Source of the DNA: Eledone cirrhosa
Taxonomy: Eukaryota
Length of the DNA: 64,000 nt
Assembly (NCBI GenBank): GCA_964016885.1
Contig: OZ024742.1
Location: 266,166,001 to 266,230,000 of the forward strand
Direction: 5' to 3'
The notes beneath the pieces were generated by a model that did not search any database, had not been told where the DNA came from, and was given only the letters and a program-made list of their open reading frames with translations. A program made the position numbers and the translations under genes. Of the stretch, positions 16,388 through 16,881 are shown piece by piece. Each line of letters starts with the position of its first letter. Positions within the stretch are counted from its first letter, which is position 1.

Positions 16388-16512
16388 GTAGGAGGTGAGT
16401 TTTATTGTAGTACAATAAAGCAATGCAGATATCGGATAAGAAGCACTCTACAGTTTGTGGGACTGGAGTATGCATAATATAAGATCAAAAGATGGTTAAA
16501 GGAGTTCAATAT

Positions 16513-16581
16513 ATTTTATTATGCGCATTTCAAAAACAAACATCATCAAACAATAATATTTGTGTTTTCATCAGATAAAAC
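16513..16581 (-). ncRNA. Second copy of the same hammerhead ribozyme, sense to the TBC1D9-like pre-mRNA
   Basis: Reverse complement of 16751-16819. Confidence 0.75.
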
Positions 16582-16750
16582 AGGAGAACATGATATGAAG
16601 GCTAAAAAAACACTTGTTGATAGTGCAGTTTTAAATCAACATATCAACGATATGTTGATTTGTAAATCAACGATATGTAAATCAACGATATGTTGATTTA
16701 AAACTGCACTATCAACAAGTGTTTTTTTAGCCTTCATATCATGTTCTCCT

Positions 16751-16819
16751 GTTTTATCTGATGAAAACACAAATATTATTGTTTGATGATGTTTGTTTTT
16801 GAAATGCGCATAATAAAAT
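16751..16819 (+). ncRNA. Type I minimal hammerhead ribozyme with canonical core
   Basis: gttttat-CTGATGA-[aaacacaaatatta ttgtttga tgatgtttgttttt]-GAAA-tgcgca-TA|ataaaat. Stem I is 7 bp; stem II is 14 bp with one mismatch; stem III is the palindrome UGCGCA. Predicted cleavage after 16812. Confidence 0.75.
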
Positions 16820-16850
16820 ATATTGAACTCCTTTAACCATCTTTTGATCT

Positions 16851-16881
<31 letters not shown>

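Follow-up and report, generated by a model that had tools for sequence, protein, structure and literature searches.

Probable origin of a hammerhead-bearing palindrome in Eledone cirrhosa from an aborted insertion of a Penelope-like element

The palindrome described here, which lies in the first coding intron of a gene of Eledone cirrhosa that we take to be TBC1D9-like, is almost certainly made of two head-to-head pLTR copies of a Hydra-type Penelope-like element (PLE). It is likely the product of an aborted insertion: both strands of the target would have served as primers for reverse transcription (RT) near the front of a capped transcript, and this is probably the best overall explanation of what we observed. 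The locus itself is ordinary, being one of thousands of truncated PLE insertions. The value lies in the family, with its many intact and near-identical ORFs, its fixed RT starts, its sharp and apparently cap-marked start and its thousands of readable joints, which make models of circular templates and of twin priming testable by junction counting.

Within the window, i.e., the whole 64,000-nt stretch of DNA that was analysed, the insert occupies positions 16385-16858 and consists of an 89-nt tail, an arm, a stuttered joint and a second arm, set within (TA)n. A repeat scan of the window returned an inverted repeat of 177 nt with 99% identity (16469-16645 / 16687-16863) and no mismatch across the first 172 nt outward from the centre, in agreement with the palindrome with 172-bp arms amid (TA)n that had been described in a sequence-only reading of this DNA. 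Positions in the element are counted from h, the first base of CUGAUGA, with the natural copy L035 as reference (e.g., h-69 or h+190). Since the subfamily of the window has one extra T compared to L035, the fixed start discussed below corresponds to plus-strand position 16688 and minus-strand position 16644. The left arm (16474..16644, minus strand) is a pLTR copy that runs from the putative transcription start at 16644 to a proximal end site and that alone carries the tail (16385..16473, minus strand), a continuation of the pLTR into the 5' UTR of the element with its outer end at the putative distal RT start site, h+190. The right arm (16688..16858, plus strand) is a tailless pLTR copy, and its TA-rich terminus, which merges into (TA)n, would be the proximal RT start at about h+100..107. 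In the joint (16645..16687), each arm is preceded by an extra G, seen as C at 16645 and as G at 16687; between these lies a non-palindromic centre of 41 nt made of stuttered direct and inverted copies of the arm's first 6-12 nt. Both the tail and this make-up of the centre had escaped the sequence-only reading. The insert is bordered by (TA)n-rich target arrays on the left (16030..16384) and the right (16859..16989), and no target-site duplication is discernible at these flanks. The host intron (6135..62052, minus strand) belongs to a GRAM-GRAM-TBC gene: minus-strand exons lie at about 62096, 6134 and 1299, and GRAM and TBC exons follow further along the same strand, so the earlier assignment to a TBC1D9-like host stands.

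The arms can be traced to an autonomous parent. Over 171 nt, the right arm matches the pLTRs of copies that carry the ORF (L240-L244 and L247) at 100% identity, and the tail (16385-16473) is 100% identical to the spacer between pLTR and ORF, the 5' UTR, in L238-L247 and L249. A 30-mer across the core has 11,715 exact matches (5,872 + 5,843) in the 3.0-Gb genome against 0 for the control, and a second subfamily (B) contributes a further 2,423, giving a total of at least 14,000 hammerhead arms; the genome-wide copy number, which the earlier reading had left to be counted, is thus very high. The 30-mer matches often occur in minus-then-plus pairs 0.13-5 kb apart, and the wider pairs enclose an ORF. 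An intact ORF of 800 aa with RT and GIY-YIG-like regions is present in L031, and by hand count the frame stays open, with no stop, for 806 codons or more in 67 of 86 scored ORF hits, these being the 86 best of 53,639 candidates. The element is indeed young, as had been proposed. Its copies include pLTRs, partial tandems, an inverted 5' copy and a one-sided tail, so that the palindrome represents the shortest form of a known arrangement, an inverted pLTR followed by a pLTR with a tail on one side. Unit length ranges from 3652 to 3927 nt among young copies owing to variable tandem repeats in the 3' UTR (L035 3' UTR; L231-L249), a variation that is also usable as a lineage marker. We could find neither a clear TATA box nor an intron in the 5' UTR. 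Pieces of two additional PLE families are nested with the element at L041:770-1288 (minus strand) and L041:1690-3919 (plus strand); one of these families is Hydra-like, and the other has a DKG motif.

The protein carries the motifs RW, DKT, YRDDG, CxCx5C, CxxC and CxH and lacks CCHH. The RW motif of the Hydra clade, where RWK replaces GxKF/Y, reads RRLRWT in P0001 and is present in 10 of 11 relatives, mostly as RWK, the K being T here; DKG has become DKT (HSDKTN); and the Cys motifs are CNCRIKNKC (the CxCx5C linker), CNLC and, near the EN end, CLH. The two best Foldseek matches of an AlphaFold model (pLDDT 76) are TERTs, with E values of 1e-7 and 3e-7, and a single 800-aa ORF with YRDDG and a TERT-like predicted fold agrees with a telomerase-like RT of the PLE type. 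Pfam and PDB sequence searches with the protein gave no RT and no GIY-YIG match, so the GIY-YIG call follows from motifs (IY...YFG...F..R...H, aligned by eye with the EN of the Hydra clade). The autonomous GIY-YIG partner anticipated from the sequence alone was recovered as copies with an 800-aa RT ORF, which carries a candidate endonuclease recognised by its motifs. Judging by these motifs, the element would belong to the Hydra clade of C-terminal EN+ PLEs, of which Hydra-1_Obim and Penelope-13_HM are examples (PMC8557442). Placement in the Naiad clade, with its N-terminal GIY-YIG, its DKA motif and its lack of a hammerhead, was rejected because domain order and motifs differ.

The Hydra clade shares with our element a single ORF with RT (followed by GIY-YIG in the clade and by the candidate GIY-YIG region here), the RW, DKT, CxCx5C, CxxC and CxH motifs without CCHH, a (TA)n target and a pLTR hammerhead (PMC8557442), and nearly all of the arm ends that we printed likewise run into (TA)n. 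For Penelope-13_HM, an inverted copy on the 5' side and hammerheads on both strands are already listed (PMC8557442 supplement). Compared by eye with Hydra-1_Obim, both protein and hammerhead differ, which indicates a different family. There are further differences from the clade: a unit of 3.7-3.9 kb rather than generally < 3 kb, a stem II of 15 bp rather than about 3-9 bp in the listed hammerheads, a tail of 85-89 nt rather than 30-40 nt, the sheer number of arms (at least 14,000), and an Asn-rich insert of low model confidence at about residues 580-656. This insert, which in P0001 is rich in Asn, Thr and Pro, lies between RT and EN and is absent from the 11 relatives; it recalls the Asn-rich inserts of Adineta Penelopes (PMC3846280).

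A relaxed scan of the whole 64 kb for type I hammerheads yielded exactly two motifs, one per arm, with CUGAUGA at +16758 and -16574, and 30 approximate dinucleotide shuffles of the window, from which the TA arrays had been removed, gave none. Both are of the minimal type I. The right motif spans 16750..16820 (plus strand), with predicted cleavage after 16812, and the left one 16512..16582 (minus strand; core at 16574), with predicted cleavage after 16520. A motif on each strand had been claimed before and is confirmed, and cleavage after 16812 is correct as a prediction. The description of these motifs as canonical was too strong: although the relaxed scan finds both, an Rfam scan returned no hammerhead model at E<=5 (only sub-threshold miRNA hairpin matches), and the closing pair G10.1-C11.1 of PLE minimal hammerheads is replaced by A-U in 13 and by G-U in 2 of 15 haplotypes. 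The missing pair weakens "canonical" but not "hammerhead-like", as the CUGANGA, GAAA and UH elements and stems I and II are present. Stem I has 8 bp including one G-U pair, not 7, and stem II has 15 pairs, not 14, plus one C-U mismatch and a 4-nt loop, and is followed by GAAA. Stem III is an 8-nt palindrome, AUGCGCAU, and the type named previously, a Penelope-like minimal hammerhead with palindromic stem III, was recognised correctly. A distal extension of stem I was dismissed, as by eye it is not conserved between the subfamilies. The CUGANGA/GAAA core, palindromic stem III and long stem II are shared with the minimal type I hammerheads of metazoan PLEs, from which the motif differs in lacking G10.1-C11.1 and the bulged base at the foot of stem II (PMC4209133).

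Stem pairing is maintained in 99.7% of cells across the 15 common haplotypes, and every one of the 8 variable pairs alternates between Watson-Crick and G-U on the sense strand of the element. The covariation of the stems that the earlier reading had called for is thus only half borne out: one-sided changes keep all 8 pairs intact, and two-sided compensatory changes occur in 0 of the 8. A shuffle control for stem pairing was uninformative (500/500). Split by strand, 98% of cells pair in sense versus 84% in antisense among 180 arm instances, a few of which may have been counted twice, and this asymmetry in the sequences favours a putative structured RNA transcribed in the sense of the ORF. One-sided A/G and C/U changes could, however, also result from mutation with a strand bias or from A-to-I editing and so mimic selection. 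Five of the seven variable pairs of stem II involve A/G differences, which might stem from A-to-I editing of the RNA template.

As a monomer, the hammerhead fold is predicted at -6.4 with stem III and -9.3 without it, against an MFE of -10.6 with a mispaired core, and the self-duplex of stem III at -10.5 kcal/mol. The weak monomer fold, the lack of G10.1-C11.1 and the stable stem III duplex are together what would be expected of a motif that depends on a dimer or a protein. Forcing the hammerhead fold within the full palindrome is predicted to cost about 105 kcal/mol on either strand, so that in read-through RNA from the host intron the hammerhead is likely silent: folding predictions place the motif of the TBC1D9-like pre-mRNA within a 172-bp duplex, where it is likely inert. 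The sequence-only reading, which had the ribozyme locked in a hairpin, therefore holds for read-through RNA. It does not hold for a transcript from the element's own putative start, which would start from the centre, proceed outward and leave out the antisense arm. The lock is also not needed as a reason why the insertion is tolerated, since many arms of the sample stand alone or far from their partner. In every short arm, copying passed a hammerhead site that had not been cut, which is in line with slow cleavage. No pile-up of 5' ends occurs at the cut site (h+55), 2 of 13 short-arm ends falling at h+58/+60, and 1 of 38 ORF copies starts near it, at h+60, which by a rough estimate is near chance.

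The ends of 116 core-bearing arms were mapped at 64 loci, i.e., the window and the loci covering the first 100 matches of the 30-mer. The 3' ends lie at h+107/108 in 59 arms and at h+189..193 in 50, with 3 running into the ORF and 4 ending elsewhere, so that 109 of the 116 stop at one of two fixed sites. The 5' ends fall at h-69..-72 in 38 arms and beyond h-312 in 50, and are scattered in the remaining 28. In 18 of 19 short palindromes a tailed arm is paired with a tailless one, each insertion thus using both 3' sites once, and the median difference is 1 nt between the two arms of a pair versus 10 nt between loci, which indicates one source per insertion.

The start of the arms carries a second signature. 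In the genome the base before the fixed start is C, whereas the 18-mer at the start is preceded by G in 2,557 cases, by A or T in 2,820 and by read-through from the 3' UTR in 6,210; a few read-through copies with point changes are contained in the classes other than C, whereas joints in which a C stands by chance are missing from them. Among 805 joints with both arms intact, the first 50 were tallied by hand, and none continues into the genomic TTC. Single-base fillers make up 22 of the 50, with a G/C pair in 21, where it is indistinguishable from genomic C, and A/T in 1. The multi-base fillers of the other 28 provide 56 arm ends with 29 G, 14 C, 10 T and 3 A (p=3e-5 against 26% G), and 23 of these 28 fillers hold at least one G. 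In a wider junction set, G occurs in 33 of 91 compared to 26% G in the partner strand, and many of these may be microhomology with the partner, so that the signal is clearest in joints of two intact arms. An untemplated 5' G in LINE-1 and SVA has been read as a copied cap (PMC4859970), and the transcription start site of Penelope sits within the pLTR (PMC8557442). By analogy, the G added at the PLE start is probably a copied RNA cap, the alternative being terminal C addition by the RT at an uncapped end; the fixed start is likely the physical end of the template, whether capped or not.

We consider it probable that these palindromes arise by twin priming on capped RNA, in four steps. Pol II would start in the pLTR at the fixed site (16688 / 16644) and produce a capped pLTR-ORF-pLTR RNA. 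The GIY-YIG domain would nick both strands of a (TA)n array, and each nick would prime RT internally, one at the proximal site and one at the tail site, both of which are TA-rich. On the uncleaved linear RNA, the two cDNAs would then run 170-260 nt through the intact hammerhead and fall off the capped end, adding C, before being joined via microhomology or stuttering end repair into a dead-end palindrome. In the twin priming of L1, the internal position taken by the second primer varies, and no overlap exists between the two parts. Here, both primings would use fixed sites and copy the same stretch, giving a palindrome. The two systems have in common that two primings yield an inversion joined with small indels, and that an extra G marks the copied cap (PMC4859970). 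The mapped ends also fit PAc, the Poseidon of Anolis, in which both target strands are cut and extended and two internal RT starts define the tail (PMC11167929). Two primed strands, two internal start sites and an uncleaved RNA as template would be common to PAc and our element; the start sites of PAc lack homology to the target, in contrast to both ends of our element, which are rich in TA and grade into (TA)n, and the 5' cap, the inverted joint and the origin of tandems are addressed here but not in the accessible part of the PAc study (PMC11167929). It counts against our explanation that in PAc hammerhead cleavage is unnecessary for insertion in vitro and 0 RNA-seq reads end at the site (PMC11167929).

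Copies that extend into the ORF behave differently. Our sample comprised 40 of the 86 ORF hits, chosen as best-scoring and not at random, of which 38 were usable; in one of the others no start could be detected. If full-length copies came from the same capped start they should begin there, and this prediction failed: 0 of the 38 copies that include the ORF start begin at the fixed site, h-69. Instead, 26 (25 distinct) run past it, and the remaining 12 end between h-41 and h+186, including 5 at h+171..186, just past the tail start, a cluster that would correspond to one full round of a circle. With stopping on first arrival at 33-46%, 0 stops in 25 has a p between 4e-5 and 2e-7. From 20 long copies examined whole, 18 could be analysed. 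The second round covers 0.3 kb to more than one unit with varied ends, and an inverted segment lies upstream in 14. In 12 of the 18, the best match of the upstream repeat is the downstream repeat of the same insertion; in 5 there is a tie, and in 1 another repeat is closer. The three pLTR copies of L248, and likewise those of L249, are equally distant from the window arm (one mismatch or one gap). A circular unit RNA explains the lack of a stop site, the variable length exceeding one unit and the matching repeats, and this reading was adopted after the prediction above had failed. As a fifth step, the two hammerheads of a full transcript would pair via their palindromic stem III and release a unit RNA of 3.7-3.9 kb, which would be circularised, and RT round the circle would produce the long partial-tandem copies. 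Dimer cleavage, ligation, a circular template and copying beyond one unit were proposed by Cervera and de la Pena in 2014 (PMC4209133); the junction statistics presented here bear on that model, which was put forward without such data in the available part of the paper.

That long copies are made on a ribozyme-derived circle is nevertheless close to an even call, or slightly less, because linear tandem sources also explain the matching repeats and because the sample is biased to the best ORFs. A serious competitor, if a somewhat less probable one, gives the short palindromes the same origin and derives the long copies from linear read-through of tandem sources, driven by a host or upstream promoter, or from RT jumping, with the hammerhead as a passenger or RNA trimmer. 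Head-to-tail multimers do exist (L035, L241), young tandem sources would carry identical repeats, and PAc inserts from unprocessed RNA in vitro (PMC11167929). However, stops on second arrival would be expected from a capped linear template as well as from a jump at the cap, and these are seen in 0 of 25 compared to 33-46% on first arrival, and without a circle or a jump the length of tandems could only shrink over the generations. The circular reading can be combined with twin priming into a cycle of two templates, which we put forward tentatively: the capped linear mRNA, primed only on its first pLTR, would lead to cap-marked dead-end palindromes, and a hammerhead-made circle would template all copies that are full-length or exceed one unit. 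If so, the ribozyme would act as a switch between abortive and productive retrotransposition, and the thousands of palindromes would be the fossil of a ribozyme not firing in time.

The sequence-only reading had treated the palindrome as a distinct, ORF-less element, which is not borne out, as the arms are those of an autonomous pLTR and short and long arms mix on the tree. A tree of 142 arms (82 short, 60 long) requires 26 changes between the short and long labels, at least 15 of them forced by well-supported branches, and does not support a separate lineage of short elements. Shuffled labels gave a mean of 36 changes, which points to some clustering of short arms, explained in part by the twin nature of partner arms; the nearest arm of a short arm is short in 28 cases and long in 16, with 38 ties, and some copying of short from short may occur. 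Closest to the earlier view is an unlikely alternative in which the template of the short arms is a short capped RNA of its own, about 260 nt long, from the start to the tail end, made by any pLTR including the palindromes, as a partly SINE- or retrozyme-like non-autonomous family. An AATAAA about 12-16 nt before the tail end would suit such an RNA, as would the slight clustering of short arms, the internal promoter of the Penelope pLTR (PMC8557442) and the existence of non-autonomous PLE derivatives (bioRxiv 2026.07.22.740005). Against it, short and long arms have identical sequences in 5 sets and are intermixed in both subfamilies, no poly(A) follows the tail in the copies printed, and head-to-tail arrays of the short hammerhead unit, as in retrozymes, are absent from the 64 mapped loci. 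Animal non-LTR retrozymes resemble the palindrome in being non-coding and PLE-derived with a type I hammerhead, but form head-to-tail arrays of their own lineage, whereas the palindrome is a head-to-head pair identical to the autonomous pLTR (bioRxiv 2026.07.22.740005, in the part available); the family might be listed in the supplements of that study.

Even less probable is that a single cDNA snapped back at its self-complementary start and was copied by DNA-templated synthesis. The start sequence ATAT is self-complementary, perfect palindromes are found there in L020, L030, L111 and L114, and the arms are near-identical. In six loci (L050, L124, L128, L132, L133 and L144), however, the tailed arm either falls short of the tailless one in length or hardly overlaps with it, so that each arm holds sequence absent from the other, which argues for two primings and not for one fold-back cDNA, and both arms in the window have an added G of their own. 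Fold-back chimeras do occur in long reads, but a chimeric-read or assembly artefact with a hammerhead by chance is very improbable given the element-specific ends, the asymmetric tail and the 41-nt non-palindromic centre, the 805 joints of one class with varied fillers, the contigs from two runs of other studies with loose ends at the same start and tail positions, and the 0 motifs in 30 shuffles.

Several parts of this picture are already published, namely pLTR hammerheads, inverted copies, tails and TA targeting. Opposite-strand hammerhead pairs 100-700 bp apart have been ascribed to truncated PLEs (PMC4209133), and in Adineta, head-to-head pLTRs overlap at a palindromic 5' end (PMC3846280). 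Craig et al. (2021) regarded the function of EN+ PLE hammerheads as unclear and the formation of tandem and inverted structures as unexplained (PMC8557442). In a literature search of titles and the openings of abstracts, with the older Penelope literature outside its scope, we found neither a cap-type G nor twin priming at PLE 5' ends, nor, within the same scope, the contrast between short and ORF-crossing copies or the two fixed 3' sites used once each per insertion. Through its insertions the element also places many long and nearly perfect hairpins in introns, on which RNA editing and silencing would be expected to act.

Other repeats surround the palindrome in the window. A broken 3' fragment of a different Penelope-like element (56300-57400, plus strand) with several stops, a CxxxxCxxC linker, a GIY-YIG match in Pfam (E 5e-5) and an inverted repeat in the 56365 / 57317 region is not the partner of the palindrome. 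Degenerate palindromes of 78-83% self-complementarity lie at 3597-3946, 4140-4539 and 19233-19337 and lack a hammerhead core. At 10059-12096 (plus strand), where the GC content is 55%, frameshifted ORFs represent another non-LTR element, which has a zf-RVT-like stretch at its C-terminus. A 4.3-kb direct duplication with 93% identity (22754-26979 versus 27749-31997) beside an N gap (32054-32253) may be a real tandem or a mis-join. Many copies of LINEs that are presumably RTE-like are present at 12400-19100, 23600-24400, 28600-29400, 32250-43700 and 48500-51900; they encode APE, RT and an internal Cys/His finger and end in (CAT)n/(TGA)n adjoining (TA)n arrays, and one of them starts at 16989, adjoining the palindrome.
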